64,000 nucleotides of DNA from an uncultured Gammaproteobacteria bacterium (GCA_964355175.1 CAYHBZ010000002.1:396537-460536), one strand, 5' to 3'; numbered from the stretch's first letter, positions 575 to 24,128 are shown. Notes: generated by a model not told the origin, from the sequence alone. A program made the numbers and translations.

Positions 575-607
575 TATCTTGAATCAACATTAGAAATTAT
601 AAATTTT

Positions 608-1669
608 ATGACCATCCCTCCACACATTCCCGCACCTAGTTGCAATATCTCTACTCACAAACAATGGCAGAATATCAGGGTCCTATTGTTGGCCGTAATT
701 TTCGGTTTGTTTGCTGGACTCACCGGAGCCGCTATTATGCTTGGTTGGATCTGGCCTAGTATTGGGGTGGGAGAAAGTTGGATTGGGACTTCTGATAATT
801 TGGTATCTTCTCGTGACACTCTGTCCGATAATGTGCGCGCCGAGAGTGAAGATCGTTTGGGCACGGTCTATCGTGAGGTGGCCAGTAGCGGCGGACTGAA
901 TTATCTCAGTAATGACAAAAAAATCGGTGAAGCGGTTTTTATTTCCAGTGATGGTTGGATGGCGATGTATTATCCAAATTTTGACGGTAATTATAAAAAT
1001 TGGAAAGTGCTTTTGAAAAACGGCGCTTATATGGGTGTGCAAAAAGCGCTCCATGATAGCTATACCAATTTGGTATATTTAAAAGTTGCGGCCACTCAGG
1101 CCGGCGCTCAATTCAAGGTGGCCAATTTTAATGATCAGCTAAAATCCGGACAGGATATGTTTATCCACACTTCGGTCAATTGGCGTCATAGTTTTTTTAA
1201 TGATTACTCTGCCCAGGCTTTTGTTTATCCGCATTTGGATACCGCTCCGAGTATAGTGCTCAAGCTCAATGACAGCTTTGAAACCGGTAGCTGGGTAGTA
1301 GACAGCAGCGGTAAATTTGTTGGAGTAATGGCCGGCGGCAATAATGTGTTGCCAAATAATTATCTGACTACGGTATTGTCGACAGTATTGAGCAATCAAA
1401 AAATATTTTATCGCACTTTGGGAGTAAGCGGTTGGTTTTCTATTGAACAGCCGATAGTGGTGGGCTCCGAACGCCTCAACGGTTTTGCCGTATCTAAAAT
1501 TATCAGTGCCAAGGAACTAAAAGTAGGGGATGTTATTATGTCTATAAACGGACAGCTAGTGTCGCCAGATAATTTGTGGTATAATATTAACAATTATCAA
1601 AGTGTTAAATTACAAGTTTGGCGCAAAGGTAAGCTAATCGAGTTAGTGGAAACTACTAAACAAATTTAG
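608..1669 (+). CDS. membrane-anchored PDZ-domain protein with degenerate trypsin/HtrA-like core
   Basis: N-terminal TM (VLLLAVIFGLFAGLTGAAIML); C-terminal PDZ-like GFAVSKII..VGDVIMSINGQLV; no clear GNSGG catalytic motif. Confidence 0.5.
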   Translation: MTIPPHIPAPSCNISTHKQWQNIRVLLLAVIFGLFAGLTGAAIMLGWIWPSIGVGESWIGTSDNLVSSRDTLSDNVRAESEDRLGTVYREVASSGGLNYLSNDKKIGEAVFISSDGWMAMYYPNFDGNYKNWKVLLKNGAYMGVQKALHDSYTNLVYLKVAATQAGAQFKVANFNDQLKSGQDMFIHTSVNWRHSFFNDYSAQAFVYPHLDTAPSIVLKLNDSFETGSWVVDSSGKFVGVMAGGNNVLPNNYLTTVLSTVLSNQKIFYRTLGVSGWFSIEQPIVVGSERLNGFAVSKIISAKELKVGDVIMSINGQLVSPDNLWYNINNYQSVKLQVWRKGKLIELVETTKQI

Positions 1670-1690
1670 TTTTTAATTTTTTGCTTTTTT

Positions 1691-2296
1691 ATGTTTGAAA
1701 TTTTGAGCCGTAGTTTTAAATTGATTTTAACTTGGGGAATTTTGGCGGCGGTATTATCGGCTGGTATTAGTTTGCTTTTTCCTTGGAAATATAGCGCGGA
1801 AAGTCAGGTGCTGATTATTTCACGCGATCGTACTGGTGTAGATCCATATACTCAATCCAAATCGGCTGAACGCATCGGTGATAACCTCACTCAGGTAATG
1901 CAGACAGCTGATTTTATGCAGAAAGTGATGGAAACACCCAACACCGCTTTTGACAAATCCCGTTGGCAGAATATGACTGATCGCAAAATGCGTAAACAGT
2001 GGAAACAAGATGTAGTTGGAGAGATGCAGTATGGTAGTAGTATTATGAAAGTGACTGTATATAGTACCAAAGATGATGTGTTGCCTTTGGCCAATTCGGT
2101 CACCGGTGCTGTGGTCACTCATGGTTGGGAATATGTCGGCGGTGATGTGGCTCTAAAAACTGTCAGCGCGCCACTCGTGTCCCGTTGGATTGCGAAACCA
2201 AATATTATTTTGAATGGACTTCTTGGATTTTTGGCCGGTGTAATTTTATCTTCGGCCTGGGTTATTAAATATCAGCGCCATTTGTTTGGCCGTTAA
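1691..2296 (+). CDS. Wzz/chain-length-determinant-like bitopic membrane protein
   Basis: TM at both N- and C-termini flanking a ~140 aa soluble domain, the architecture of short Wzz-like proteins. Confidence 0.4.
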   Translation: MFEILSRSFKLILTWGILAAVLSAGISLLFPWKYSAESQVLIISRDRTGVDPYTQSKSAERIGDNLTQVMQTADFMQKVMETPNTAFDKSRWQNMTDRKMRKQWKQDVVGEMQYGSSIMKVTVYSTKDDVLPLANSVTGAVVTHGWEYVGGDVALKTVSAPLVSRWIAKPNIILNGLLGFLAGVILSSAWVIKYQRHLFGR

Positions 2297-2309
2297 TTTA
2301 AATTATTTT

Positions 2310-2636
2310 ATGACGGACCAGAATATCTCAAACGAACAATCCGACGCGCAATTATTGGGCGCCAAGCTTGGTTTATTTATTTCCTCAATGCCAATTGACG
2401 ACGCGGCCAAAGCTTCGATGGTAGAAGCGGCTCTTTTGATGAATGAACAAGAATTGACGGAATTCGTCAGCGCGCTCGAAACCCAATATGCTACTTTCAA
2501 AACCGAGGGTTTTAAAGAAGAATTAAAACAAAATTTGTCGGGAGTAAAGAATAAATTTGATGCCAAACGAGAAGCTCTGAAGAAAGAAGCTTTGGCCGAG
2601 ATGTCCGATTTGGAAAAAGAATTGGATAACTTATAA
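2310..2636 (+). CDS. hypothetical acidic helical protein
   Basis: ATG at 2310 inside ORF 2286..2636; tightly spaced with the next two genes (operon-like). Confidence 0.45.
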   Translation: MTDQNISNEQSDAQLLGAKLGLFISSMPIDDAAKASMVEAALLMNEQELTEFVSALETQYATFKTEGFKEELKQNLSGVKNKFDAKREALKKEALAEMSDLEKELDNL

Positions 2637-2642
2637 ATTTTT

Positions 2643-2834
2643 ATGGAGGAAAATGTTGATCAAACTAAAAAAGATTCCGACGAGCGTTACCAAAAGTTGG
2701 TACAAGCTTTTTTGGCGGTAGAGCAGGAATTAGATCAACTCAAATCCGAAGGTTTTAATATCAAACACGATATATTTAAAGCAATCGATCACAACAAAAA
2801 GAAAAAAATAATAGACTTCATAAGTAAATTATAA
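2643..2834 (+). CDS. hypothetical small coiled-coil protein
   Basis: 63-aa ORF, 6 nt after previous stop and 4 nt before giant gene. Confidence 0.4.
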   Translation: MEENVDQTKKDSDERYQKLVQAFLAVEQELDQLKSEGFNIKHDIFKAIDHNKKKKIIDFISKL

Positions 2835-2838
2835 TTTT

Positions 2839-5800
2839 ATGGCTAGAAGTAATGCGGCCAAAAACCCCGCGCTCGAAACAGCAACGCCACCAGTGGTGCT
2901 GGTGGAAGACCTAAAAGAAAAGGAAATAAAACAAAAAAAAGAAATGAAGTTGGAAAAGATTGAGAGTGTCTTTGACGCGGCGAAGGAAAGGGTGAAAGGA
3001 AAAGAAGACCACCTGGCGGCGATGCACGCGGAATTGGTAGGTTTGCTTAATCAGATCCCGGATAAGGAAAATGGGGATTTTACGGTGCGATTACATAGAT
3101 TCGCGGATAGATTTGGAACTATTAAAAACCATTTAGATAATATGGTAGCCGAAAGCCAATTGCCGGAATTGGAATCGGGTGCTTTTGCGCCAGTGGATGC
3201 GACGGAGTCGTCGCCGGTGTCAAAGAGCAATAGTCATATTTCGGAATTAAAAAATTTCAAAGATACTAGTGGTGCTATTTTAAATGGGGCTGTAAATGAA
3301 AAAATAAAAGATAAACCGATTTTTCGCGGCAGCATGGTGTTTAAAAATGGTGACCATTATGTTGGTTTCTCTATTCTCTCAGCTGACGGATCTTATAAAT
3401 TTCACGGTGAAGGTTCTCTAGAAAAGGATGGGGGTAAGATGGCGCTTGAAGGTTTTTTTCAAAATGGCAAATTAAAAAATGGCCATCTGATTGAAAAATT
3501 AGCAGATGGTAGAACAAGAGTGGTATTTGCTGAAAATGAAAAAGCTGCGCGAGTTGAAACTGGATATTTTAATAGCAACAATCAGTTGGAAGGAGTGGGA
3601 GAAATTATTGATCAAAAACACGGTGTTAAAGAGCGTGGAGATTTTGTGAACGGCGAGCTTCGTGATGGTTATGTGGTAGATCTGATAAGCGGTAAACCGT
3701 TGGAAAAATGGGAAAATGGCAAACAAGTCGAAGCGGGAGAAAATTTACCAGCCGAAATCACTAATTCGGAAAAAAGTTTTGACAGAAGACTGGCTGCCAG
3801 AGAAAAAGAAAGAGAAATCAAAGTCGAAGAAGTTTTTGAAGCAGTCTCCGGTCTAGATGGTTTGGTAAACTTTGAGGATGTTTCCAATCAGGTTTTAAAT
3901 GGGAAAATCACTCACACGCCTAAAAGCGAACATATTTTTGACGGAGAAATAAAATCCGACAGTAGAGGCTATAAATACCAAGGCCAGGCTATTTTGGAAA
4001 GTGACGGTGTTTTCAGATTCCACGGCCAAGGAAAGCGTACCGCTGAGATGGCTTATGCAGGAAAGGTAGAACAGGAAGGTGAATTTTCCTATGGAACTTT
4101 TTTGAACGGTGTAGGAATATATACTGGCCAAGATATGGGCTACGGTGCAGATAAAGTTACAGAAAAAATGGAAAATGGCAAGACTGTAGAAAGAGTATTT
4201 TATCTTGAAAAATACAAAGATAAAAAGGATGTATTATTTGCCGGTCAGATGTTTGAAAAAGAATTTTCCAAAGACAATCTATATGTCGGTGAATTCACTA
4301 TGCCTAATGGCTCCGTATATAAAGGAGAGGCCTTTAAAAATAAAAAAGGTCAATTTGAATTGGTGAGCGGAAAGTCAGAGAGAATAAAATCCGCTACAGT
4401 GATAGATAAGTTTAAAGATTTATTTAGATTTGGTAGAAATAAAAAAGAAGAATCAAAATTAGCTACAGCCGAAGTTCAATCGGAAGTTGAGGCAGAAGCA
4501 GAACAGGCTCCGGAAGTTGTGGGCGAACAAGCGTTTCTTCTCGTCACTCCTGGAGGAGAAAATTACGCACTTAAAGGTATCGCCACTGATCAATCCGACG
4601 GCAGTAGGAAATTTAATGGAGAAATAAAAAATATTGATAACGGTGGTGAAGAGACTGGCTTCCAATATTCTGGTGAAGCAATTCTTTCTAGTAACAATGA
4701 AATAACTTTTCATGGCAAAGGAAAAAAGAGTGGCGCCTTTTTTGATGAAACCGGTGAATGGAATATGGGTGAGTTGGAAAATGGTGAAATCCATTCTAAA
4801 GATGGAGAACTTTTGAAAAAATATGTAAATGGACAAGAGGTGGCCGTGACCAAACCAGCTGAGAAGTCCAAAGAAAAAAGTTGGATCGGTAAAAAGTTGG
4901 AATCAGCCAAAGAGTCTGTAGCTTCCGCGTACAATTTTGTCACTACCAAAGAAGGAGCAAGGTTATCCAACCAAGCGGCCTATAAAATTGCCACTGGTTT
5001 TGTTGGTATTAAAATTGGAACGGATATAGCTTTGGCGGCCTATGCTGGCGCTTTGAATAAAGTTGGTGAAAAGGATTGGTTTTCGGAAGCTTTTAAAAAA
5101 CGATTGAAAGAGGAAGCGGCTGTAGCCGGAGAGTATAGTGATGTCTATAAACATCTGGGTGGTAGGGAGCAGATAGCTGCTATCAAAGCTGGATTTGCCG
5201 AATTTATGTCGGCCGTAAATCCAGAAGAAAATGAGAATGTGGAATTGAATCTGGTAGACGAGAAATATTCCGCTCTCAAAGCAAAAATCGAATCCTCCAA
5301 TAGAATCAACCAAGAAGCCAAAGGAAAATTTTTGGCTAAATTGGAAGAGATAAACCAAAAATTTGATCACAGAAATGAAAAGTTGGATGAACAGGAAGTG
5401 GCGGAAGCTAGCGCTTATATGAAAGCCTATATCGTAAATGATACGGCTGCTATGCAGATTGCCAGAGATAGTATCAGTGGCGTGGCCAAAGCGGTGATGG
5501 TTGGTGCCAGTGGCGGTAGCAGTCTTCTTTTGGCAGGAGCTATCGGCAGGGTGATGGGTATGGCCACTACCAAAGTAGTGGAGCGTGCGCAAAAAAGCCG
5601 CAGATTCAATGAACAAGCGGCATTGGAAAACAAAAAGACATTTAACGCCGCCGAGGATATCAAAGCCGCTTTGCTTGAGACAATGCACGGTTTGACTTTT
5701 AGTAAATTTAACGCGGGTAAAGATGTAAAGACCGGCAAAGATCTGGACAAGAAAGCTCTCTTTGCCAATTTTGCTAAATCGTTTGGTAATGTATTGATAA

Positions 5801-7815
5801 GCGCCGGTGTGGTGCTTGGTTTGGAAGGCAAGACTATCGGCAGTGCAATAAATGAGCTTGTCCATAAAATTTCCGGAGATGGATCAAATGCGGAATTTGG
5901 TCGTCAGATGGCGCAAAATGTTTCAGCCAAGGTTGCGGAAGCTAAAGGTGTAAATCTGGGTAAAATACCAGATAATGCTCCGGTCGCTGCCGCAATTGCC
6001 GCCGCCGAAGCCAAAGCAGCTGCTGTGGCAGCGGGCACAGCTTCAGATCATGTAGCGTCCAATGGTTTGGAAAACTCCGCCGATACCGGCGCTGGTGAAA
6101 ATTCAGCTTTGGAGACTTTCTACCAAGAGCATCCAAAATTATCGAGTGATGCCAAAGCTTTTTTTGATGATCTTGTAAAACAACATACTAAATTAAACAA
6201 TCCTGATTTTCTCAAAAAACTTTGGGAAGTTTCTGGTAATTCTAAATCTTCGCTTGATATCACCGGTGCCAAAGTACAGACCGCTATTTTCACCGAGATT
6301 ATTCACAGTGAGGGCAAGGAAGCGGCCGTAGCTTATTTGAAAGATGAAACTCATTTGCACGGTTTGGCTTTGCAAAAATTAGGAAAAGATGGCGTTGAAG
6401 CTTTTGTGGAAAGATATCTCAAAGGTGATGCTGGTGTGCAAGCCAAGTTGGAAAATAAATTATATGGGGCCATGAAAGCTGATATTGATACCGATCTTAC
6501 AAACAAAGGTTTTATCCAGAGACACGGTGATGGATCGGTTCGGGATGTCGGTGCGGCTAAAGGCCGACATTTCTTTGGGGTTGGTAAAGACGGCAAGCCT
6601 GTATTAGACGATGGTAAGGTTTCTAGGTTTACCCATCACAGCCCTGAACATTCGGTGGCCGGAAGTGGTAAAACAGCTTTGGACAAAATAGTATCCGGTG
6701 AAAAGTTACCTAAAGTTGGTTTACATGAACAAAAAATTGGCATTGGTCCAAATATTCAAAAAGGAATTCCAACTGGTTGGGCCGCCGCTAGTGAAGCAGG
6801 TCCAAAAGGGCAGGCTATGGTAAATGGTTTTATGGATGAACAGGGCCATGGAAGATTTTTAATTCATTCTACTGATCCTGGATCAGAATTTGATGTGGAT
6901 AGAGACATGCGCATGGTGGATTCTAATAGCGGCAAAATTTTTGATCTCGATGGAAATCATGTCGGTTATCTAAATGCTCCGATGGCAGAGAATACTCCAA
7001 CACCAGTGTCCGCAACTCCAGGCAGAGCTAGTTGGTCTAGTGGTGGAAATGGTTCTGAAAAAGGTAACGCCACCCAAAATGTAGTCAGAGCAGAAAGATC
7101 TGTTGATCACGGCGGCGGCGGTGCTCCGAAAGAACAAGCGGTAGTAGCTCCTGCAGAACAAGAACCTGCTCCAGAAGAGAAGAAGCCAGTTCGAGAAACA
7201 AGAGCACAAGTAAAAGCTCCCGGTATTGAAGACATGCTAAAAGCCGAACAAACTCTACAAGAAGATATGAAAGTTGGTAAATCCGTGGAGGCTGAACCTG
7301 TTCCGGTGGTAAAAGAAATTACTTCATTGGAGGATGGGCGTGAGGCGATTGCGGCTTTAGAATATTTGGACGGCGAAGAAAAAACTCGTTTGAGTAATTT
7401 TAGTTACTTACTCCAATGGCAACATGATCTCTATGGTCAAAACGGTTCAACTTTGCGCAACATGCTGGAAGGACAGGATGCGTTTGGTACTCTTGGTAAA
7501 GATCAGATCAATAGTATGATGGCCGAGTTGGCTCATAATAATGAACTGGCCAGTCGAGAGTTTATGAGAGCAGTATCAGATCATCAGCCGTATGATAAAA
7601 TTATAGAAAAATTGAATGATAAGATGCCTGGTTACGCGATGTTCCATGATGAGGATAATGCCGGCTTTGTCGATAAGATTATAAAAACGGATCTTTCGCA
7701 AAATGCAGGCGAAAATAAGGCCGCTTTTAGAGATTTGGAACTGGCAAGAGTGAAAGAAATGGTGGATCAGGCCGAGGTAAACAAGCTAATGCAGGCTCGA
7801 CAGGCAAAAAGATAA
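2839..7815 (+). CDS. giant 1658-aa protein: MORN-like repeat modules, central hydrophobic/Ala-rich region, Pro/Glu-rich spacer, C-terminal helical domain
   Basis: Single uninterrupted ORF; three ~60-aa modules (F.GEIK..G..Y.G.AIL.SDG...FHG.GK) at about aa 165-215, 360-420 and 585-645. Confidence 0.8.
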   Translation: MARSNAAKNPALETATPPVVLVEDLKEKEIKQKKEMKLEKIESVFDAAKERVKGKEDHLAAMHAELVGLLNQIPDKENGDFTVRLHRFADRFGTIKNHLDNMVAESQLPELESGAFAPVDATESSPVSKSNSHISELKNFKDTSGAILNGAVNEKIKDKPIFRGSMVFKNGDHYVGFSILSADGSYKFHGEGSLEKDGGKMALEGFFQNGKLKNGHLIEKLADGRTRVVFAENEKAARVETGYFNSNNQLEGVGEIIDQKHGVKERGDFVNGELRDGYVVDLISGKPLEKWENGKQVEAGENLPAEITNSEKSFDRRLAAREKEREIKVEEVFEAVSGLDGLVNFEDVSNQVLNGKITHTPKSEHIFDGEIKSDSRGYKYQGQAILESDGVFRFHGQGKRTAEMAYAGKVEQEGEFSYGTFLNGVGIYTGQDMGYGADKVTEKMENGKTVERVFYLEKYKDKKDVLFAGQMFEKEFSKDNLYVGEFTMPNGSVYKGEAFKNKKGQFELVSGKSERIKSATVIDKFKDLFRFGRNKKEESKLATAEVQSEVEAEAEQAPEVVGEQAFLLVTPGGENYALKGIATDQSDGSRKFNGEIKNIDNGGEETGFQYSGEAILSSNNEITFHGKGKKSGAFFDETGEWNMGELENGEIHSKDGELLKKYVNGQEVAVTKPAEKSKEKSWIGKKLESAKESVASAYNFVTTKEGARLSNQAAYKIATGFVGIKIGTDIALAAYAGALNKVGEKDWFSEAFKKRLKEEAAVAGEYSDVYKHLGGREQIAAIKAGFAEFMSAVNPEENENVELNLVDEKYSALKAKIESSNRINQEAKGKFLAKLEEINQKFDHRNEKLDEQEVAEASAYMKAYIVNDTAAMQIARDSISGVAKAVMVGASGGSSLLLAGAIGRVMGMATTKVVERAQKSRRFNEQAALENKKTFNAAEDIKAALLETMHGLTFSKFNAGKDVKTGKDLDKKALFANFAKSFGNVLISAGVVLGLEGKTIGSAINELVHKISGDGSNAEFGRQMAQNVSAKVAEAKGVNLGKIPDNAPVAAAIAAAEAKAAAVAAGTASDHVASNGLENSADTGAGENSALETFYQEHPKLSSDAKAFFDDLVKQHTKLNNPDFLKKLWEVSGNSKSSLDITGAKVQTAIFTEIIHSEGKEAAVAYLKDETHLHGLALQKLGKDGVEAFVERYLKGDAGVQAKLENKLYGAMKADIDTDLTNKGFIQRHGDGSVRDVGAAKGRHFFGVGKDGKPVLDDGKVSRFTHHSPEHSVAGSGKTALDKIVSGEKLPKVGLHEQKIGIGPNIQKGIPTGWAAASEAGPKGQAMVNGFMDEQGHGRFLIHSTDPGSEFDVDRDMRMVDSNSGKIFDLDGNHVGYLNAPMAENTPTPVSATPGRASWSSGGNGSEKGNATQNVVRAERSVDHGGGGAPKEQAVVAPAEQEPAPEEKKPVRETRAQVKAPGIEDMLKAEQTLQEDMKVGKSVEAEPVPVVKEITSLEDGREAIAALEYLDGEEKTRLSNFSYLLQWQHDLYGQNGSTLRNMLEGQDAFGTLGKDQINSMMAELAHNNELASREFMRAVSDHQPYDKIIEKLNDKMPGYAMFHDEDNAGFVDKIIKTDLSQNAGENKAAFRDLELARVKEMVDQAEVNKLMQARQAKR

Positions 7816-7841
7816 AAAATCTATATTGTAGTAATCATAGT

Positions 7842-7867
7842 AAAATCCCCTAATGTAGGGGATTTTT
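7842..7867 (+). terminator. intrinsic terminator after giant gene
   Basis: AAAATCCCCTA-ATG-TAGGGGATTTTT hairpin plus T-run. Confidence 0.6.
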
Positions 7868-7925
7868 ATTATTATATATTTTTGGCTAATTTTAGCCAAA
7901 ATAATTGATTTATTGGCCATACCCC

Positions 7926-7954
7926 TTGACAAAATTCGTAGATGGTGCTATACT
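7926..7954 (+). promoter_or_regulatory. sigma70-like promoter upstream of cassette A
   Basis: TTGACA (7926-7931), 17-nt spacer, TATACT (7949-7954). Confidence 0.5.
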
Positions 7955-8072
7955 AATCAGTTAAAATCAAATTTAACACCACGAATTATTGCGCCAGGTT
8001 TTGAGAGAGGCCCTAGCAATACATATAGACAGCTAGGTTAATTCTCTCTCAAAGGAGAATTTTTTACTTGTC

Positions 8073-8084
8073 GTTCTTTACAAT
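8073..8084 (+). promoter_or_regulatory. GTTCTTTACAAT box, copy 1 (followed by long leader hairpin, about 8093-8140)
   Basis: Exact 12-mer shared with 8941-8952 and 10397-10408. Confidence 0.5.
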
Positions 8085-8245
8085 AAATAGTGCTGAGCCC
8101 ACATGAGATCAAGAATTTCTTGATTTGATGCGGGTTCAGTGCACACAGCATTGACGTCCTCCGCGATTTTGCGGATTCGTTCAGTGCTGCGTACTGCAGC
8201 CAGGTCACGCGCCCACCTCAGTGGCGTTTCGTTCAGGAGTTTCCG

Positions 8246-8779
8246 ATGACCACCGCAAAGCACCCCGATCCGAACCATCCGGACCCCGGCACCACCGAAG
8301 AGCCCGTCGTCGACAAGGCGAAGGGCGACACGGTGGTGACCACGACGACCACCACGAGCGTTTCGTCGGCCGAGCCCATCAAGGCAAAGCCGGTGGCGAC
8401 CACCGACACCACGGCTGGCAAGACGGCGACCCAAGAGCCCAAGAAGGGTGGCTGGCCGCTCGGGACCATCGCCGGAGCTGTCGTGCTCGGTCTTCTGCTC
8501 CTCGGCGGCGTCTACTGGTTCGGCAGCCACAACAGCAGCACGCCGGTCGTCCCGCCCATCGCGGTCGCCGGTTGCTGTCTTCCCCAGGCCACCGTCGCGA
8601 GCCCCTGCTGCCCGCAACCGCCGGCTCCGCCCCCGCCGCCCGCCCCCGTCGTCAAGAAGAAGACGGTCGGCGAGTGCGTCGCCCAAGCCGTCGCCGGCAT
8701 GGAGGTCGCCCATGAGGACGACCGCCTCGCCGCGATGGACGGCGCCCGCGAAGAATGCGAGGAAGAATACGGCAAGTAG
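8246..8779 (+). CDS. GC-rich cassette A: bitopic membrane protein (Thr/Pro-rich N-terminal region, one TM, Cys/Pro-rich C-terminal region), no recognised family
   Basis: AGGAG 6 nt before ATG; strong G/C at codon position 3 in this frame only; TM WPLGTIAGAVVLGLLLLGGVYWF preceded by KKGG. Confidence 0.65.
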   Translation: MTTAKHPDPNHPDPGTTEEPVVDKAKGDTVVTTTTTTSVSSAEPIKAKPVATTDTTAGKTATQEPKKGGWPLGTIAGAVVLGLLLLGGVYWFGSHNSSTPVVPPIAVAGCCLPQATVASPCCPQPPAPPPPPAPVVKKKTVGECVAQAVAGMEVAHEDDRLAAMDGAREECEEEYGK

Positions 8780-8940
8780 CCGTTCCTGTCTCGCGTCGCT
8801 ATGTCGGTTCGGCGGGCCCTCAGCAATGAGGGTCCGCCGGCCGACTGGCTCGAATAGGACCTTTGTAGATTCCACTAGGGAAACTCCAAAGGTCCCCTAG
8901 ATTACATTCTTTTGGAAACAAGAGGATGTTGATAGGAAAA

Positions 8941-8952
8941 GTTCTTTACAAT
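8941..8952 (+). promoter_or_regulatory. GTTCTTTACAAT box, copy 2 (TTGATA 12 nt upstream)
   Basis: Exact 12-mer; about 35 nt upstream also similar to the copy 3 region. Confidence 0.5.
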
Positions 8953-9196
8953 TAAAACCAACAAAATTTTTTCCCACCTAAAAAGAATTATTATTTATAG
9001 TAATTCACTCTCGGTGGGAAAAAGTGTGGCGGAAATTCCGTTGCATAGCCTCCGACAGAGTCCCAATTGGGGCAAGTGCCCCGCGTGCGGGCTACTCTGT
9101 TACAGCGACCATTTCTGGGAAGCTGACCGAACGGCCCGCACGGCCGGTGTTCCAGTGTCTTGGTTTCGTGGGGTGAAAGTCCCCTGGAGTACAGCG

Positions 9197-10192
9197 ATGA
9201 ACAAGAATTCGAAGTTCCACAACCTCAGCATCTTGCTGACCCTGGCCATGGGGATCATGGTCGCTTCCAATTCCTACGCCGACGTGGCCACGGCTCGCGC
9301 TCGTGCCGAAGCCGCTCGTAGCCAGGCCAATCGGGCTGAGGTGAAAGCGGTCGACGCACAGACTGCGGCCAACGCGGCCAAGACCGGCGCCACCAACGCC
9401 CAGACCGCGGCCGATCAGGCCAAGGTCGAAGCGACCGCGGTGGGCACCAAGGCGGCCACTGACCTCGCTACGGCGATCCGCGCCCTCAACGGTGCGGTCG
9501 GCGGTGCGCGTGCGGCAGCGGTCAACGGTGATCGTCAGCTCGAGCGCAAGTTCAAGGCGGAGGCCGAGCGCCTTCAGACCGAGATCGAAGCGCTCAAGAA
9601 GCGGGCGCAGCACGAGTGTGCGGCGTTCGATGACAAGGGCAGCCAGGCGGCCTGTCTGACCATGCTCGAGAAGATCAACGCCAAGAACGGCGAAGTCACC
9701 ATGCACGGGCAAGACAAGGACACGGAGGTCCAGATCGCCAAGGTGGGACAGCAGTCCAAGGTGGTCCAGGAGATCTTCGACAACGCAAACCAAAACATGG
9801 ACGCCATCAAGGCGATCCAAATGGGTTGCGTCAACCAGGCCTTCGTCGACAAGGACGGCGTCAGCAAGAGCAAGTGGGAATGCCCCAAGGACATGAAGCG
9901 CGGCCCGCAGTTGCGCTACGAGCTCACGAACGTCTCGAAGTACGGCGACCACAGCGTCGTCATCGAGCCGGCCGAGAGCGGTGGCAATTCCAAGTGGGGC
10001 AAAGTGCTCGGCTTCGGCGCCATCGGTGGTGCTGCTGGCGGTGCTCTTGGCTGGGCCTTCTTCCCGAACCATGAAACCATGGAAGATGGCAGCGTCATGC
10101 ACCGGAATTACACCGGTCTCGTCGCTGGCACGGCCATCGGTTTCGTGGTCACGGCGGTGGCCACCCTGGTCATCGAAGAACTGACCGAATAG
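9197..10192 (+). CDS. GC-rich cassette B: secreted Ala-rich coiled-coil protein with C-terminal Gly-rich hydrophobic anchors, no recognised family
   Basis: GGAG 7 nt before ATG 9197; signal-peptide-like MNKNSKFHNLSILLTLAMGIMVASNSYA; GC3-biased frame; 9014-9196 treated as 5' leader. Confidence 0.65.
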   Translation: MNKNSKFHNLSILLTLAMGIMVASNSYADVATARARAEAARSQANRAEVKAVDAQTAANAAKTGATNAQTAADQAKVEATAVGTKAATDLATAIRALNGAVGGARAAAVNGDRQLERKFKAEAERLQTEIEALKKRAQHECAAFDDKGSQAACLTMLEKINAKNGEVTMHGQDKDTEVQIAKVGQQSKVVQEIFDNANQNMDAIKAIQMGCVNQAFVDKDGVSKSKWECPKDMKRGPQLRYELTNVSKYGDHSVVIEPAESGGNSKWGKVLGFGAIGGAAGGALGWAFFPNHETMEDGSVMHRNYTGLVAGTAIGFVVTAVATLVIEELTE

Positions 10193-10396
10193 GTCAACGG
10201 GTGAGGAGATCACCCCAAAGGATTGCAAGTGTGTTGGTTCACTTGCGCCAAATCTCGGTGTAGCTTATCTTGTCCCGCATTCGCGGTACGAGAGAAAGTT
10301 CACTAAACCGGTGGCGTGAACGATGGCTCAAATAGAGCTGTCGGTCACGCCCCAACAACTATCTTCTGTTTTTCAAACAGGGGATTGAGTTGGTAA

Positions 10397-10408
10397 GTTC
10401 TTTACAAT
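10397..10408 (+). promoter_or_regulatory. GTTCTTTACAAT box, copy 3 (TTGAGT 12 nt upstream; followed by hairpin, about 10426-10476)
   Basis: Exact 12-mer. Confidence 0.5.
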
Positions 10409-10641
10409 TTATTTCGTTAGATTTTCTCATACAGGACATAGGATATTTTTTGTATCTTGTGTCCTGTGTGAGAAGCCCCCAGTGGGGGTTGCCTGGGTGA
10501 AAACCCGACTAGGTCGGGGCGTTCGCTCCGGCAATTCCTCACTAGGGTGGTAAAAACGCCATCCGGACGGGTCAACTTCGACCTTTTCGGTAAAGTAGCA
10601 GTGTCTTTCTTTGTCCGCCCTTTAGTGGGCCGGAGGTTCTG

Positions 10642-12063
10642 ATGCGTAACCGGTTTCAATTGGTCGCGACTCTCGCGATGGCGGCTGCAGCCTGTGCAGC
10701 GTGTGGTGTCATCGAACATCCGGCCGATGCGGTCGTGATCGTGGTCGAAAAAGACGCCAGCAGCCAGGATGTCCAGCAGGACAACGGTCCGGCGCAGCAG
10801 CCCGAGATCGCGCAGACGGCCGACATCGCGCAGGACAACGGTCCGGCGACGAAGCCTGAGTGCGCGGTCGACAGCGACTGCGACGACAAGAACCCCTGCA
10901 CGACGGACGTCTGCGGCAGCAACGCCTGCGTCCACGTGGCCAACTCGGTCTCGTGCGACGACGGCAACGCCTGCACCAGCAACGACAAGTGCGGCTCCGA
11001 GAAGTGCTCGGGTGACCAGAAGGTCTGCGACGACAACAACCCCTGCACCGACGACGGCTGCGTCAGCGACGGCACCTGCCTGCACGGCGTCAACATCGTC
11101 AACTGCGACGACAGCGACGCCTGCACGGAAAAGGACCAGTGCGCCAACGGTAAGTGCGTCGGCCAGGTGAAGTCGTGCGACGACAAGGACAACTGCACGA
11201 CGGAATCGTGTGACAAGCTCAACGGGTGCTCGTCCACTCCGGTCGTCTGCCAGGACGCCGGGGATCCGTGCACGACGGAATCGTGCGACAAGGCAACGGG
11301 CAAGTGCTCGTCCACCACCGACTGCGACGACAAGGACGTCACCACGTTGGATGCCTGTGAACCGCTGCTCGAGACCGTGGGAATGGAGAAATGCCTCCAC
11401 ATCAAGATGCAGACCAAGTGCACCAAGAATGCGGATTGCGACGAGGACGGCGATCCGTGTTCGTTCGAGTTCTGTTCCCAGATCGGCTACTGCGCCAGCA
11501 AGTGGAAGTTGTGCGATGACGGAGACTACTGCACCCAGGACGAATGCGTCCCTCAGGCCGACTACGCCTGGTGCAAGAGCACTCAATACTCATGCGACGA
11601 CTACAACGCCTGCACGCTGGACTCCTGCACCAACGGCTACTGCCAACACAAGGGCAACGCCGCCATGTGCGACGACAAGGACTCCACCACCGCCGACTCG
11701 TGCAACCCTTCCCAGGGCTGCGTCAACACGCCGATTCCTCAACCCGGCGTGCCGAGCTCGACTCCTCCCTCGAATCCCTCGACCTGTGCGGCCTGGGGAG
11801 CGTGGATTTACTTGCCCACGGGCAACTGGCGCGGCGGCTATGACCTGACCGGTTCGTCTTCGCAAGAAACGGACCTGACAATCAGCGTCGACCAGTGGTA
11901 CGGCTTCAGCAACGCTCATTCTGTGTGGGCGTGGCTCAAGCCGTGGGGCAGTGCGGTACCGGCAAGCGTCAAGTGCACTGATCGGTGTGGTGTGGTCTTC
12001 CCCGCGAAGATCAGTGCCATGGCGGGTGGCTTCATCGCCATCTGCAGCACCGACCAGAAGTAG
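10642..12063 (+). CDS. GC-rich cassette C: Cys-rich repeat lipoprotein/secreted protein (tandem C-D-D-x-N-x-C-T-x-D-x-C units, Dicty_CTDC-like)
   Basis: GGAGG 5 nt before ATG; N-terminus MRNRFQLVATLAMAAAACAAC (signal/lipobox-like); 12 or more repeats of ~24 aa with spaced Cys; unrelated ~120-aa Trp-rich C-terminal domain. Confidence 0.75.
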   Translation: MRNRFQLVATLAMAAAACAACGVIEHPADAVVIVVEKDASSQDVQQDNGPAQQPEIAQTADIAQDNGPATKPECAVDSDCDDKNPCTTDVCGSNACVHVANSVSCDDGNACTSNDKCGSEKCSGDQKVCDDNNPCTDDGCVSDGTCLHGVNIVNCDDSDACTEKDQCANGKCVGQVKSCDDKDNCTTESCDKLNGCSSTPVVCQDAGDPCTTESCDKATGKCSSTTDCDDKDVTTLDACEPLLETVGMEKCLHIKMQTKCTKNADCDEDGDPCSFEFCSQIGYCASKWKLCDDGDYCTQDECVPQADYAWCKSTQYSCDDYNACTLDSCTNGYCQHKGNAAMCDDKDSTTADSCNPSQGCVNTPIPQPGVPSSTPPSNPSTCAAWGAWIYLPTGNWRGGYDLTGSSSQETDLTISVDQWYGFSNAHSVWAWLKPWGSAVPASVKCTDRCGVVFPAKISAMAGGFIAICSTDQK

Positions 12064-12330
12064 GCGGGGCTCAGGGGGTCTAACGGAAAAAGTTTTTGCT
12101 CTTTGGTAAAAGCAAACGGAAGGAGGTGTTCCTTTCGATAGGCCATTTCGGCCACCCATGCCAGAGGCGAGCGATCGCTAAAGGCTGGTCAACTAGGGGT
12201 GGTGTTGCTTCACCGCACACCACCCCGACCATCTCTAGCTCACAATATCTGTTGTGATCTGAAGATGGAAATAGCAATATGTCCATGACAAAAATACCAC
12301 CCTTCTCTCGGGCGGTTTTTTGTTTTTTAA

Positions 12331-12356
12331 GATTCCTCGCTACGCTCGGAATGACA
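12331..12356. repeat. REP-like element, half site (GATTCCTCGCTACGCTCGGAATGACA)
   Basis: Reverse-complement orientation of the GTCATTCCGAG...GAGGAATC family seen five more times. Confidence 0.6.
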
Positions 12357-12358
12357 AC

Positions 12359-13741
12359 TTAGACCTTGGCACTCCAATAACCCCATACTGCCCACCACCA
12401 CCAGATCACCGGGGTGTGGTGAAGCATGTTATCAGAAGCACTCAAAGTGAGATAAACAAAGATGCTAGTGATGAATACAAAATTTGTCCAAGCATTTTTT
12501 TTGCCCCATTTTATTTCTCGATAAAGTAAACTGATAAAAATTCCAATATACAGAGCTAGGCCTATAAGTCCGGATTCAAACCCAATTTTGAGATAATCAT
12601 TATGGGCCTCGGAAGTGGAGTCCCAGATGTTTTCCACCCCTTTATTATCATCCCAAACTTTGGCAAAGCTACCATAGCCGTAGCCAGTGAGAGGGTGTTT
12701 GCTCCAAAGTGGAATTACTTTATTAAAAAGATCCGCGCGCCAAGAGATAGAGTCGGCTTCCATGTTGCGGCTGGTCATACGGGCCACGAGCGGGCTTTGC
12801 TGTAGGTTTACATTTAGGGTAGTTTTGAGCCAATAATTTATTGGGAAGAATAGTCCATACAATATTAAAATTCCGGCGGTAAAAATAATGGTTTTTTCGC
12901 GAGCATATTTGAGGCCAATAGCCAATAAAAATATGGCCAAACCAATCCAGGCAATGCGGGTATAGGTAAGAGCGATAGCTACGGCCAAGAATACCATGGT
13001 CAAAACATATAGTTCACCTTTGGATTCTTTAAATAAATTTGGTTTAAATTTGAGCAGTTTGCTGGCGTGCTCTAGGTAATTATGATATTTATGAAACAAA
13101 AATATAAATAAAATTAGGGAAAAAGTGGCTAGGATATTGGGGTGGGCGAAAGTGCCATAGATGCGATTGGGGGTGCCGTCGATATCCATGCCGGTTTTGG
13201 TAATAAACTGGTAAATAGCCAGTAAGAATGTGGCAATGCCGGAAGAAATAAACAACCAAAAGAAAATTTTATCAAAAAATTCACCGTGTTTGCGGCGTAA
13301 AATATAGCTCATTCCAAACAGGGCAAATAGGTTGGCGCCTTTGAGAGTTTCGGTGATAGTGGCCATTGTATCAAAGCTCCAGAAAAAAGTGGCGCCACTC
13401 CAGACTATAAAAGCTATCCATATTCCGGTCAAAGGAACATTTTTAAATTCGCTAAAATGTTTGTAAAAAAATATTACGGACCAGGCTAATAGTAACAATG
13501 ATACGGCCGCGTTGAGATTGAGGTGAATGGCGTTGTAGGAAAAAATGACATAGTCGCGCCAGTAGTCCATGGTCGGGCGGGCTAGCAATAGGGTGAGTAG
13601 GGCATAGTCGCCAAAGAACTTGTAGAGTACGATGACCACGATGGCCAAGAGGGCTAGGATATCGCCGCCGGTGGTGGGATTGAAAATGGTAAAAATTAGT
13701 AGTCCGCCGATGAGCCACTGGGTAAGGGAGAGCTTGTTCAT
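12359..13741 (-). CDS. O-antigen ligase/Wzy-like polytopic membrane protein
   Basis: 460 aa, 10 or more TM helices with a large loop in the C-terminal half, typical of the Wzy_C/O-antigen ligase family. Confidence 0.6.
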   Translation of the reverse strand: MNKLSLTQWLIGGLLIFTIFNPTTGGDILALLAIVVIVLYKFFGDYALLTLLLARPTMDYWRDYVIFSYNAIHLNLNAAVSLLLLAWSVIFFYKHFSEFKNVPLTGIWIAFIVWSGATFFWSFDTMATITETLKGANLFALFGMSYILRRKHGEFFDKIFFWLFISSGIATFLLAIYQFITKTGMDIDGTPNRIYGTFAHPNILATFSLILFIFLFHKYHNYLEHASKLLKFKPNLFKESKGELYVLTMVFLAVAIALTYTRIAWIGLAIFLLAIGLKYAREKTIIFTAGILILYGLFFPINYWLKTTLNVNLQQSPLVARMTSRNMEADSISWRADLFNKVIPLWSKHPLTGYGYGSFAKVWDDNKGVENIWDSTSEAHNDYLKIGFESGLIGLALYIGIFISLLYREIKWGKKNAWTNFVFITSIFVYLTLSASDNMLHHTPVIWWWWAVWGYWSAKV

Positions 13742-16108: not shown

Positions 16109-18095
16109 ACTGATACTCTATAGGTCAGCCGTCGCGATATTTTTGGGGATTTTTATCTCAGTTTTTTGTTATTTCAATTCGTATGTTTATGGTGCTCCAA
16201 TTTTGGCCAACTATATTTTGGGTACATTGCCACAAGATAGCGACTCGATTGCCCAGCTGGCCAAATTTGATTTGCTCATAGTTTCCGCCGAGCAGGGAGT
16301 GGTGCGCAAAGCAGTTTTGCAAAAAGTGCGTGAACTAAATCCAAAAATAATTTTGTTGGCCTATGTGCCGTCGCAAAGCACCAATGATTCCTGGAAAGAA
16401 TATCCGGCCAATACTTTGTATGGAAATTTTCAGATGAATGATAACTGGTGGCTACGTGATACGGCCGGCCGTCAGATTTCTGATTGGCCGCGTCTGCACA
16501 ATGTTGATCTTAGTCAGGGTTGGTCCGATTACCTGATTGGTTATGTAAAAAATAATATTTTATCTCAAGGACTTTGGGATGGAATATTTTATGATATGTT
16601 TTATGACAGTATTGCGGATAGAAATCATGGCGATATTGATCTCAATCGTGATGGCATGAGAGATGATGCGAGTTGGGCCAACGCGCAGTGGGTGAGTAGG
16701 ATGAGTTATTTGCTCAGCGCCAGCCAACAGCGCCTCGGAGTGAAATATATTATGATCAATGGAAATTCGATTCCTTCTTTGCAAAGTATGGCCAATGGCC
16801 GTATGTATGAAAATTATCCGACTCCGTGGGAAGTTGGTGGTAGTTGGACCGGTATTATGACCGGTCTCAAACGCAATCAGTCGCTCAACGCCAAACCTCA
16901 GCTCTATGTCTTCAATGCTAATACGGCCAATACCGGCAATCAAAAAGATTATCGTCGGATGCGCTTTGGTTTTGCCAGCAGTTTGATGCTAGACAATGTT
17001 TATTTTAGTTTTGATTACGGGGATAGAGATCACAATCAGATCTGGTGGTATGATGAGTATGGTGTAGGGCTGGGAAATTCCGTTGCCAATCCAATTTCCC
17101 AAAACGGTCAGGTGCAATTTAATGCCAGCGATATTTGGCGTCGTGATTATGAGCATGGTATTGCTTTGGTCAATCCTAGTGGCAACACTCAGACGATTGA
17201 TCTAGGAAATGAGTACGAAAAAATTATCGGCAAACAAGATGCTTTTACCAACAACGGTGAAATCACTTCCAATGTTACTATTCCGGCTCGTGATGGATTA
17301 ATAATGCTCAAAACTTCCCAAACTTTACAAAATGTTTCTTTTAAAAATGGTAGTTTTGTCAGATTCTTTGATATGTTTGGCAAAAGAGCGCGTAACGGTT
17401 TTTTTGCCTTTGAAGATAGTAGTCCCGGTGGCGCAATAGTTTTTCGTGGGGATTTAAATAATGACAATACGGTAGAAAAGGTAATGTCTTCCCAGGGTAG
17501 ATTTCAAATTTTTAATACAGCGGGTCAGATTTGGTATGATAATTATCCATACAATGGTAATTATAATTCTGATCTTCGGTTTGCGGTAGGCCAGAGTTTT
17601 GGTCAAGAAAATCAGATATTAATTTCTCCGGCATCGGGTGGCAAGGCGGTTTTGTATAATTATCACGGGGGTGTGCTAAAGGATGATTTCTACCCTTTTG
17701 GTGCCAAATATAAAATGGGTTTTTATGGCGGTTTGGGACATTTTGATAGCTTGGACAGCTGGCAAATGGTTTTTGGATCAGGGGGAAAACAGGCTGGAGT
17801 AGTGCTTATTTATGATACCCAGGCAAACAAAGTGAAACAAAAGTTCTATCCTTTCAGTATAAAGTACTTGGGAGCGGTGAAAATTGCTGTCGGTAATTTG
17901 ACCGGTGACACCCATTCGGAAATAGTAGCTATGGCTAAGATTGGCCATAAAAATATTGTTCGAGTCTTTGATATGAAAGGTAAACAACTCTCTGAGTTTT
18001 CCGTCGGCGGTCCATTTGATGGGGGTGACCTAAATATCTATACTTCGGATATAAATTTCGATGGTTTCTCAGAACTGGTAATAGTAGGGGAATAG
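16098..18095 (+). CDS. exported protein: putative glycoside-hydrolase-like (GHL15-type) N-terminal domain plus FG-GAP/VCBS-like C-terminal repeats
   Basis: Signal anchor; N-terminal half resembles the hypothetical glycosyl hydrolase-like family; C-terminal D.N.D...E repeats. Confidence 0.45.
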   Translation: MKNKLILYRSAVAIFLGIFISVFCYFNSYVYGAPILANYILGTLPQDSDSIAQLAKFDLLIVSAEQGVVRKAVLQKVRELNPKIILLAYVPSQSTNDSWKEYPANTLYGNFQMNDNWWLRDTAGRQISDWPRLHNVDLSQGWSDYLIGYVKNNILSQGLWDGIFYDMFYDSIADRNHGDIDLNRDGMRDDASWANAQWVSRMSYLLSASQQRLGVKYIMINGNSIPSLQSMANGRMYENYPTPWEVGGSWTGIMTGLKRNQSLNAKPQLYVFNANTANTGNQKDYRRMRFGFASSLMLDNVYFSFDYGDRDHNQIWWYDEYGVGLGNSVANPISQNGQVQFNASDIWRRDYEHGIALVNPSGNTQTIDLGNEYEKIIGKQDAFTNNGEITSNVTIPARDGLIMLKTSQTLQNVSFKNGSFVRFFDMFGKRARNGFFAFEDSSPGGAIVFRGDLNNDNTVEKVMSSQGRFQIFNTAGQIWYDNYPYNGNYNSDLRFAVGQSFGQENQILISPASGGKAVLYNYHGGVLKDDFYPFGAKYKMGFYGGLGHFDSLDSWQMVFGSGGKQAGVVLIYDTQANKVKQKFYPFSIKYLGAVKIAVGNLTGDTHSEIVAMAKIGHKNIVRVFDMKGKQLSEFSVGGPFDGGDLNIYTSDINFDGFSELVIVGE

Positions 18096-18125
18096 CAGTT
18101 ATTTTAGCGGGTATTTGCTTGCATA

Positions 18126-18154
18126 TTGACAGGCGCTGGTTTTTTTGATTTAAT
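18126..18154 (+). promoter_or_regulatory. sigma70-like promoter of cassette D
   Basis: TTGACA, 17-nt spacer, TTTAAT; same hexamers as cassette E promoter. Confidence 0.55.
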
Positions 18155-18306
18155 AATAAGTCGTTTGTTCTTTATTTGGCAGGATAATTTTGGATTAAAA
18201 TTTTTAATTCAGAGTTATCGTGCCAACTTTCTCAATGCGTGTCGGCGAAATGCGTCGATATGTAAAGAGAGGTGCGAGAGCCTACATGGTAGGCAGGAGA
18301 GCAGGA

Positions 18307-19122: not shown

Positions 19123-19185
19123 TCCGTTCCCGATCTGTTCGGGCACTTGTAGTTTAGCCTTGATTTCTGAAGGCAAAAGCTCGGT

Positions 19186-19300
19186 GAGGACGCAAAATCC
19201 CCCCAAGGGTGTGTCGTTTACTCGACACTACCTGCTTAGTTCGCAAAAAATTGTTTGCTGAGCAGAATAAAAAATCCGCTATTATGGTGGATTTTTTAAT
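19186..19300 (+). repeat. 3' repeat R1, copy 1 (three hairpins, the last a terminator)
   Basis: About 80% identical to 20118-20238; bulged hairpin GGTGTGTCG-TTTACT-CGACACTACC; ends AAAAAATCCGC...GGTGGATTTTTT. Confidence 0.6.
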
Positions 19301-19330
19301 CTAAAATATGCTGTTTTTAGGTCAGTAGTA

Positions 19331-19359
19331 TTGACAAAGTAGGATTTTTATGTTTTAAT
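19331..19359 (+). promoter_or_regulatory. sigma70-like promoter of cassette E
   Basis: TTGACA, 17-nt spacer, TTTAAT. Confidence 0.55.
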
Positions 19360-19504
19360 AGTTCATTAGATTGTTCTTTTTAATCAATTCGCGCGACAAT
19401 TATAAATTAAAATTTTTCAATTTATAATCGTCGTGCGAATTTCAGTTTATCAATGACGGCCAGTCGGAGGTTCCGATTGGTTCAGCTCTTTCTGCGAGGT
19501 GAGC

Positions 19505-20074: not shown

Positions 20075-20117
20075 TAGTCAAACATACTTTGAACCTAAAA
20101 GTGTGTGAGACTCCTGA

Positions 20118-20238
20118 ACAGGACAAAAAATCCCCAAAAGGGTGTGCCGACTGAAAAGTCGGCACTACCTGCTTAATCAATAAAACATTGTTTATTGAGC
20201 AGAATAAAAAATTCACTTTGAAAGGTGGATTTTTTAAT
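20118..20238 (+). repeat. 3' repeat R1, copy 2
   Basis: Same three-hairpin layout as 19186-19300; stem 1 differs by paired substitutions (GGTGTGCCGAC / GTCGGCACTACC). Confidence 0.6.
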
Positions 20239-21136: not shown

Positions 21137-21193
21137 AAGGCTAATTTTATGGTATGATTATGTTCGTTTCTCTTATATATTAATCTAATCTTT

Positions 21194-21358: not shown

Positions 21359-21366
21359 ACTTTTGG

Positions 21367-21397: not shown

Positions 21398-21415
21398 ATT
21401 TACAAACACTCTGTT

Positions 21416-24127: not shown

Positions 24128-24128
24128 A

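Follow-up and report, generated by a model that had tools for sequence, protein, structure and literature searches.

A giant mosaic protein of an undescribed family ends a conserved operon in Candidatus Magasanikbacteria and may serve as a cytoplasmic scaffold

What is the role of a bacterial protein of 1658 amino acids (aa) that resembles no described family and is encoded directly behind two tiny helical proteins? The question is raised by a stretch of 64,000 nucleotides (nt) deposited under the name of an uncultured Gammaproteobacteria bacterium (GCA_964355175.1, CAYHBZ010000002.1:396537-460536), which we analyzed at its full length and call the window; coordinates are counted from its first letter. 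A preliminary description made by a model from the letters alone (the sequence-only reading) had taken in the giant gene and the two small genes before it, at positions 2310-7815. We find that these make up only half of a six-gene operon, hereafter the cassette, of which the giant gene is the last. The reading that we favor, tentatively and with less than even confidence, is that the giant protein is a cytoplasmic, membrane-proximal, modular scaffold of an envelope complex that is specific to Magasanikbacteria and encoded by this one operon.

The giant gene is intact. Its open reading frame (ORF; cassette gene 6) runs from 2839 to 7815 on the plus strand, as do all features of the cassette given below, with an ATG start, a stop codon at 7813-7815 and no internal stops. 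The identical protein (P0001) is encoded on five contigs from the assemblies of three sources (ENA, Logan, and NCBI), one of them 953,736 bp long. Because independent assemblies yield the same protein, the gene is neither an assembly artefact nor a pseudogene, and the very large single ORF stands as first described, free of the internal frameshifts or stops that might have undone it. A word-indexed search returned six homologues, full-length or partial, at 34-68% identity, one of which is labeled Candidatus Magasanikbacteria; the ORF is therefore coding. We treat the six genes as one operon because the gaps between them are only 4-33 nt (13-33 nt at the three upstream membrane-protein genes) and because a terminator-like hairpin follows the giant gene (7842-7866; an 11-bp stem and then a T-rich tail, 27 nt past the giant stop).

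The best conserved segment of the giant protein is a helical core at aa 671-1000 (4849-5838), a new domain that defines the family. We searched its profile exhaustively against 1.84 billion representative proteins and retrieved 72 proteins at E ≤ 1e-3, 33 of them at E ≤ 1e-10. Apart from a few fragments or short members they are large (roughly 800-2200 aa), and the core lies at variable positions within them. Five residues are invariant, namely G723, K725, D729, D877, and T948 (columns G53, K55, D59, D207, and T278 of the broad alignment); Y715, D768, N880, R904, E915, E947, G983, and G990 are nearly so. The core spans about 300 aa and holds three Gly/Ala-rich semi-hydrophobic segments, in keeping with the Ala/Gly-rich center described earlier.

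No family match for the giant protein was found in Pfam, NCBIfam, PHROGs, PADLOC, or the sequences of the PDB. Its 65 relatives share no recurrent Pfam domain, lenient scans of 28 core sequences gave no recurring weak family, and searches of PDB sequences with the single sequence and with the core profile returned chance-level helical matches only. Neither a catalytic domain, which the sequence-only reading had also failed to recognize, nor membership of a known family thus came to light in these collections for the giant protein or its 65 relatives. Across the cassette, a PADLOC scan at E ≤ 0.01 gave only two marginal matches, both on partner proteins, and in the literature on DUF5663, Magasanikbacteria, CPR (candidate phyla radiation) giant proteins, and MORN we found no description of this locus. 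The giant protein belongs to a previously undescribed family. A close subfamily of nine representatives can be told apart within it, and in a collection of species-representative genomes this subfamily occurs at only two loci, both from Magasanikbacteria. Comparison by hhalign gave a probability of 0.1 that the close and distant subfamilies have homologous C-terminal domains, and we rejected such a shared origin.

One distant family member has a different setting. P0043 (L014, 69-6764) is a protein of 2231 aa in which the core is fused behind an N-terminal domain of about seven transmembrane (TM) helices. A Lys/Arg-rich stretch follows the last TM helix, and by the positive-inside rule it points to the cytoplasmic side. 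The gene lies outside any cassette context, near efp, rpsR, ssb, rpsF, and a PilM-like gene. We rejected the idea that P0043 is a fusion of cassette proteins, as its N-terminal membrane domain is unlike the 269-aa protein of the cassette and its context is different.

Ahead of the core, the N-terminal half of the giant protein is predicted to consist largely of elongated beta-sheets. The motif Y.G.[AS][IV]L.[SA][DN][GN]...FHG.G occurs exactly three times, at aa 174, 380, and 610. An AlphaFold2 model of aa 1-680 (7-sequence alignment; mean predicted local distance difference test (pLDDT) score 75.5) folds these regions into tandem beta-hairpins that form a single-layer antiparallel sheet, with pLDDT 80-95 over the arrays. 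Array 1 spans aa 135-300 (3241-3738; pLDDT 82-89), array 2 aa 341-517 (3859-4389; pLDDT 80-95), and array 3 aa 564-668 (4528-4842; pLDDT 79-90). A helix (aa 311-336) links arrays 1 and 2, and an acidic disordered linker (aa 523-563) separates arrays 2 and 3. The best Foldseek matches of the N-terminal half in the PDB, at E values of 1e-5 to 1e-3, are MORN1 of Toxoplasma and Plasmodium (6t6q, 6t4d, 6t69), ciliary MORN proteins, and junctophilin-1/2, with the single-layer sheet of OspA also among them; array 1 in particular matches MORN1, junctophilin, and OspA, and array 2 has fold matches as well. The Pfam models MORN and MORN_2 (PF02493 and PF07661) do not match, since hmmscan of the whole giant protein at E ≤ 0.1 returned no Pfam family, and a regular-expression search of the giant protein for the canonical MORN unit of about 23 aa, YxGxWxxGxxxGxG, found nothing. 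The MORN-like modules of the sequence-only reading are thus right at the level of the modeled fold and go unmatched by the Pfam MORN models. Only the close subfamily has the arrays, the N-terminal helices, and the C-terminal helical domain, and array 3 is kept in only four of its nine representatives. The arrays therefore do not define the family.

Other parts of the giant protein flank these regions. Its extreme N-terminus, a conserved MASNAARK-like stretch, is followed by a three-helix region found in the close subfamily only (aa 22-105, 2902-3153; AlphaFold2 helices at aa 22-51, 56-71, and 81-105, pLDDT 72-88). Behind the core lie a swappable helical domain (aa 1086-1222, 6094-6504; pLDDT about 65-80 for aa 1090-1170) and a beta-rich domain common to the close subfamily (aa 1223-1385, 6505-6993; AlphaFold2 strands with pLDDT about 70-77 at aa ~1300-1380). 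The Pro/Glu-rich spacer and helical C-terminus seen at the outset are both there, the spacer disordered (aa 1386-1490, 6994-7308; pLDDT <35) and the C-terminal domain a predicted helical bundle (aa 1491-1658, 7309-7812; pLDDT 70-90). Within the spacer, the motifs SWSxGGN and HGGGGAPKE are strongly conserved in the close-subfamily alignment amid variable, disordered surroundings, and they may be a processing or docking site.

Does the giant protein cross or enter the membrane? The sequence-only reading had suggested membrane-embedded helices in its center. Hydrophobicity indeed peaks at aa 716-740, 879-915, and 973-1004, with Kyte-Doolittle maxima of 1.35-1.53. Neither the giant protein nor any of about 70 relatives contains a TM-grade window, taken as 19 residues with a summed Hessa free energy (dG) below 3 kcal/mol; the partners' own TM helices have values from -2.0 to 1.3. 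The most hydrophobic stretch, at aa ~879-905 (5475-5555), is a subfamily-specific insertion that is gapped in 24 of the 28 sequences of the broad alignment; it is present in only a few close relatives and absent in P0004 and P0006. The other two semi-hydrophobic core helices carry invariant Lys, Asp, and Arg residues. Given the low hydrophobicity, the insertion status of aa 879-905, and these charged residues, classical TM helices are not supported, and the Gly/Ala-rich helices possibly have a monotopic, re-entrant, or protein-packing role.

Nor did we find a signal for export. The N-terminus of the giant protein, MARSNAAKNPALETATPP..., is hydrophilic, as are those of family members in a cassette context, and no signal peptide, twin-arginine (Tat) motif, or TM-grade segment was detected in about 75 family members. 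The composition of the giant protein, rich in Lys and Glu, points the same way. On a log-odds scale trained on proteins of this window it scores -0.045, which lies in the cytoplasmic range (-0.007 to -0.059) and not in the extracytoplasmic one (-0.031 to +0.038).

Eleven loci carry the cassette, whole or as far as the contig reaches, and all of them belong to Candidatus Magasanikbacteria, a group of ultra-small bacteria, or to their relatives. Among them are the window (same genome as locus L004), L001, L008, L010, L011, L012, L013, L015, and L016, and L003, where the cassette occurs twice in tandem. Its order is constant, with the 8-TM, PDZ, and Wzz-like membrane proteins followed by a helical protein of ~100 aa, sometimes a 63-aa protein, and then a large core-family protein. 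As far as contigs reach, a core-family member is the last cassette gene at all cassette loci, P0043 being the exception noted above; at L008, L010, L012, and L013 this gene encodes 627-1864 aa and carries the core, and core identity across cassette loci falls to about 25%. At six loci the cassette adjoins rplT-rpmI-infC-smpB, which is usual where the upstream flank is on the contig, and genes for Wzy_C, GT4 glycosyltransferase, GHL15, radical-SAM, or Mur proteins are often nearby. In this lineage the cassette belongs to the core genome, at a fixed location and inherited vertically, and its distribution is not patchy.

Two of these loci deserve comment on their own account. L008 (GCA_035473115.1, contig DATION010000002.1, carrying P0014) is labeled 'Candidatus Udaeobacter sp.' (Verrucomicrobiota); given a synteny of rplT-rpmI-infC-smpB and cassette as in Magasanikbacteria, this suggests a binning or labeling error. 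At L003 the tandem cassettes span 577-13609, and the second giant protein, of 1579 aa, has no detectable core. It does have three Gly-zipper-like hydrophobic segments, spaced like those of the core, and C-terminal domains common to other family members. The ~100-aa protein of this second cassette matches DUF5663, and pairwise BLAST of its small proteins with those of the window gave no significant match.

Within this conserved setting the giant gene stands out for its variability. Between the window and L001, the proteins L20, L35, IF3, and SmpB are 92-98% identical, and the 269-, 353-, and 201-aa cassette proteins are 79-89% identical, as are the Wzy_C, radical-SAM, and GT4 proteins. Identity is 87% for the 63-aa protein, 59% for the 108-aa protein, and 38% for the giant protein. 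Across five genomes the ranking is similar, from the 201-aa Wzz-like protein (88-93%) and the 353-aa PDZ protein (80-91%) through the 63-aa protein (68-87%) to the 108-aa protein (51-80%), the second most variable in the cassette, and the giant protein (37-56%), the most variable. The giant and 108-aa proteins are both least diverged in the same pair, that of the window and L015.

Variation is spread unevenly along the giant protein. Compared with P0002, its closest homologue, the core is 79% identical, the C-terminal domain 71%, and MORN array 1, the most variable part, 35%. P0002 also has an extra hairpin block and an unrelated domain in place of aa 1086-1222. Within the close subfamily the domain at aa 1086-1222 is shared only with P0003, a few distant members matching it weakly, and P0004, P0006, and P0007, like P0002, have an unrelated domain at that position. 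Judged from these alignments, the giant gene is a hypervariable, recombining slot inside a conserved operon. Fast divergence and domain swapping in such a setting would therefore make the giant protein the specificity-determining part of a lineage-specific machine.

What, then, are its partners? The first is a Trp-rich, polytopic membrane protein of 269 aa with ~8 TM helices. Its 3' part lies at 2-574, the window starting inside the gene, and the full gene (cassette gene 1) was read from L004 (6927-7736). The protein is 43-80% identical in L003, L008, and L011 and has no Pfam match. An exosortase-like role was rejected for it, with no Cys and no family match. Cassette gene 2 (608-1669) encodes the 353-aa protein, which has an N-terminal TM anchor (Hessa dG -2.0), a trypsin-like domain, and one PDZ domain, with weak PDZ, HtrA, and S32 matches. 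In its family GSWV, GAVA, or GEVA stands where the catalytic Ser would be, and no His-Asp-Ser set in canonical order is invariant, so this is probably a pseudo-protease, to judge by the aligned homologues. Its short, Pro-rich cytoplasmic N-terminal tail, M..PPH.P...W, is invariant. The family comprises 47 clusters, and every one with a named source comes from Magasanikbacteria or Patescibacteria. Cassette gene 3 (1691-2296) encodes the 201-aa protein, which resembles Wzz and other polysaccharide co-polymerases (PCPs) and has two TM helices and an extracytoplasmic domain of ~140 aa. It matches Pfam Wzz at E = 3.7e-5 and TIGR01006 weakly, and its orthologues at L012 and L013 match Wzz without qualification. 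Across loci it is 51-89% identical and ends in a conserved LFG.

The two small helical proteins that the sequence-only reading placed before the giant gene are indeed there, with gaps of 6 nt between them and 4 nt to the giant ORF. Cassette gene 4 (2310-2636) encodes 108 aa with no signal peptide or Cys. We take ATG 2310 as its start and not TTG 2286, because the resulting length matches gene calls in relatives. Its homologues, of 93-108 aa, form one family and hold this place in the cassette at every locus where the contig extends far enough. Cassette gene 5 (2643-2834) encodes the 63-aa protein, with a weak, sub-threshold DUF5338 match; it is present at L001, L003, L011, L015, and L016 and absent at L008, L010, L012, and L013. 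The two may act as chaperones or adaptors, as first proposed, which is consistent with their being conserved partners and with the high variability of the 108-aa protein. The latter is our candidate for an adaptor or chaperone that serves the giant protein, and its next-highest variability together with the joint minimum of divergence in the window-L015 pair favors such a pairing.

The following picture would accommodate these findings. The giant protein would stay on the cytoplasmic side, and the three membrane proteins would form a trans-envelope complex. An invariant tail on the 353-aa protein and a C-terminal LFG on the Wzz-like protein imply cytoplasmic ligands, and the core (aa 671-1000) may dock the giant protein both at the membrane and on these short conserved tails, using its cationic-aromatic lead-in KEKSWIGKK and the Gly/Ala-rich semi-hydrophobic helices. 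From there the three MORN-like sheets and the C-terminal helical-bundle rod would project as interchangeable binding platforms, with the 108-aa protein binding the variable part of the giant protein as a specific adaptor or chaperone. The complex as a whole would then be a membrane tether and scaffold in the style of junctophilin or talin, organizing envelope or polysaccharide biogenesis at the locus.

Several observations weigh against this cytoplasmic scaffold. An identity of 37-56%, with neighbors at 80-98%, combined with domain swapping, is more typical of surface proteins or of proteins for interaction between organisms. Cysteine is about nine-fold depleted across the family (0.09% versus 0.80%), as in exported proteins of monoderms. 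The composition classifier was trained on only about 9 kb of sequence, the all-helical AlphaFold2 model of the core is of low confidence (pLDDT about 30-80, 7-sequence alignment), the small helical genes upstream resemble secretion chaperones, and the contacts between the giant protein and its partners are ones that we infer.

Much of this evidence speaks for the foremost alternative, which we consider possible and on the unlikely side, namely that the giant protein leaves the cell by a non-classical route and is a hypervariable protein of the surface or of contact with a host. On this view its export or anchoring would be the dedicated task of the three membrane proteins, with the small helical ones as secretion chaperones. 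The MORN arrays would recognize some variable ligand outside the cell, such as a host surface or a lipid, and the semi-hydrophobic core would serve as an anchor or insert into a membrane. Besides the gap between 37-56% identity in the giant protein and 80-93% in its partners or 92-98% in ribosomal proteins, IF3, and SmpB, this alternative can claim the mosaic structure, with domain replacement and array gain or loss, the tandem duplication at L003 with its divergent second giant protein, and the near absence of Cys from the whole cassette, not from the giant family alone. It can also claim the small helical genes directly upstream, the large extracytoplasmic PDZ and Wzz-like domains of the partners, and, among the fold matches, the OspA-like single-layer sheets, which are surface proteins. 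However, signal peptides, Tat motifs, and TM helices are missing from about 75 family members, and Pfam-type scans of the cassette proteins revealed no ATPase or known translocase component. The Lys/Glu-rich composition scores as cytoplasmic, and the solved MORN proteins among the fold matches are all intracellular. The surface or effector role of the sequence-only reading thus keeps hypervariability and cysteine exclusion on its side, and loses ground to the lack of a signal peptide across the family and to the cytoplasm-like composition. We prefer the cytoplasmic scaffold because we give the lack of an export signal and of an energizing component more weight than divergence and Cys depletion. 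A more elaborate version of export, which we hold to be doubtful, makes the cassette a novel, ATPase-less export or display system of monoderm CPR, in which a Wzz-like ring, the PDZ pseudo-protease, and the 8-TM protein would bring hypervariable giant proteins, signal-less and kept by the small helical chaperones, to the cell surface or anchor them there; their swappable MORN arrays and C-terminal domains would mediate host attachment or evasion in an arms race.

Could the core instead be an enzyme? On this improbable account it would be a novel all-alpha enzyme with K725, D729, D877, E947/T948, R904, and E915 as its active site, and its substrate would be an envelope polymer that the neighboring Wzy, GT4, and GHL15 genes produce. 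These charged residues are (near-)invariant in otherwise variable helices of members that are only about 20-25% identical, and envelope-polysaccharide genes recur beside the cassette. Yet neither sequence profiles nor fold comparison link the core to a catalytic family, the invariant charges in helices would be accounted for just as well by buried salt bridges or by contacts with partners, and the second giant protein of L003 fills the same slot without a detectable core.

Less probable still, in our judgment, is a type VII-like effector (LXG with Lap/WXG) or another chaperone-dependent effector, which the small proteins would target to a secretion ATPase encoded elsewhere. In LXG-Lap loci of type VIIb systems, a pair of small helical ORFs precedes the gene for a large protein that lacks a signal peptide and has a helical N-terminus. 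The cassette mimics this order, down to the polymorphic and mosaic nature of the large protein. Searching PDB sequences with the core profile also gave marginal EsxA matches (E = 0.03), but these fall in the core and not at the N-terminus, and they are not significant. Pfam and NCBIfam scans of the giant protein and both small proteins showed no LXG or WXG100 homology, and neither the cassette nor the scanned large ORFs of the window matched WXG100, LXG, EssC, or FtsK_SpoIIIE, so that an EssC-type ATPase is lacking nearby. There is no recognizable toxin domain and no immunity gene, a terminator following the giant gene directly, and the cassette is a fixed core-genome locus and not a polymorphic toxin island.

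Hardly credible, finally, is a phage-derived, tape-measure-like protein with two assembly chaperones in a prophage remnant: it would suit a long protein with largely helical C-terminal two thirds, Gly/Ala-rich semi-hydrophobic segments, and two small upstream genes, but PHROGs gave no match, 50,697 phage genomes (tblastn) and IMG/VR contigs hold no relative, the flanks are chromosomal (smpB, infC, rpmI, rplT, and envelope genes) with no phage genes nearby, the gene order with smpB and cell-wall genes stays fixed even between deeply diverged loci, and a confident beta-sheet N-terminal half is ill-suited to a tape measure, so we rejected a phage origin. An anti-phage defense system was likewise rejected, given fixed synteny and no PADLOC match for the giant protein.

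The wider neighborhood bears on the setting of the cassette. On the minus strand at 20246-31292 the window carries a cell-wall and division cluster of the dcw type, with two Mur ligases and a penicillin-binding-protein transpeptidase, and the cassette therefore lies in an envelope-biogenesis neighborhood. Directly 3' of the giant gene is an island of ~4 kb (8000-12100) with a guanine-plus-cytosine (GC) content of 0.58-0.60, the genomes having ~0.40. The island is conserved in four relatives at this position, among them L015 (8300-12800), L016 (5200-9400), and L001 (14600-19000). In the window the island is preceded by a near-consensus promoter (7926-7954) and encodes an Ala-rich coiled-coil protein with a C-terminal Gly-rich TM helix (9014-10192) and a lipoprotein-like repeat protein (10642-12063) with 10.6% Cys, a Pfam Dicty_CTDC match (5e-25), and 43% identity to its L015 counterpart. 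Automatic gene calls in L004 picked minus-strand ORFs instead. Two more GC bumps (~0.51-0.52 on a background of 0.40) lie at 18000-20200 and 56000-58200; ORFs at 18220-19122 and 19499-20074 are Cys-free and have no Pfam match, and a tRNA is located at 56122-56206.

These findings matter beyond the single locus. The CPR (Patescibacteria) makes up a large share of bacterial diversity and, to our knowledge, how its members construct their envelopes and contact their hosts is mostly unknown. Here, a conserved six-gene operon joins recognizable envelope parts (Wzz-like, DegS-like PDZ) with unknown ones, among them a core domain family that has no entry in Pfam, the PDB, PHROGs, or PADLOC, and its giant gene diverges several-fold faster than all its neighbors and swaps domains. 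The giant protein thus gives structural and metaproteomic studies of Candidatus Magasanikbacteria something definite to aim at. Export would imply a new secretion route; a cytoplasmic location would make the protein a bacterial counterpart of membrane tethers built from MORN arrays and helical rods. The impact is limited by a narrow range, that of Magasanikbacteria and relatives (72 representative clusters).

We know of no system that matches the core domain or the cassette as a whole; only the Wzz-like and PDZ partners fall in known superfamilies (Wzz/PCP and S1C-PDZ). The 353-aa partner has the layout of DegS/HtrA (S1C) proteases, with an N-terminal TM helix, a trypsin-like domain, and one PDZ domain, and its homologues are annotated as S1C proteases; in contrast to DegS/HtrA, its family does not conserve the catalytic Ser. 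For the 201-aa partner the match is to the N-terminal domain of Wzz, and the topology, with two TM helices, is that of PCPs, but the protein is short and lacks a bacterial tyrosine kinase (BY-kinase) partner. Pfam and NCBIfam scans of the giant and small proteins showed no Walker A/B P-loop or kinase family, and thus no PCP/BY-kinase pair. Moreover, we know of no PCP that is linked to a giant protein, as the 201-aa partner is.

For the giant protein itself, two groups of intracellular membrane linkers come into view. The rods of talin, vinculin, and alpha-catenin, made of four- and five-helix bundles, are among the fold matches. However, the four-helix bundles of TorS and chemoreceptor ligand-binding sensors and designed bundles match equally well, so this likeness is of a general kind; the sequences are unrelated, and over the core the model is of low confidence. 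With the MORN tethers (junctophilins, MORN1 of Toxoplasma and Plasmodium, and ciliary proteins of the RSP1/RSP10 type) the giant protein shares G-rich beta-hairpin arrays modeled as single-layer antiparallel sheets. It differs from them in lacking Pfam-detectable repeats and a TM anchor, in having three separate arrays, each opened by a ~60-aa module of the form Y.G.AIL.SDG...FHG.G, and in being a bacterial protein encoded in an operon with membrane proteins. In junctophilin, a long helical region comes after the MORN arrays and then a membrane anchor, and the domains of the giant protein follow one another in a like order.

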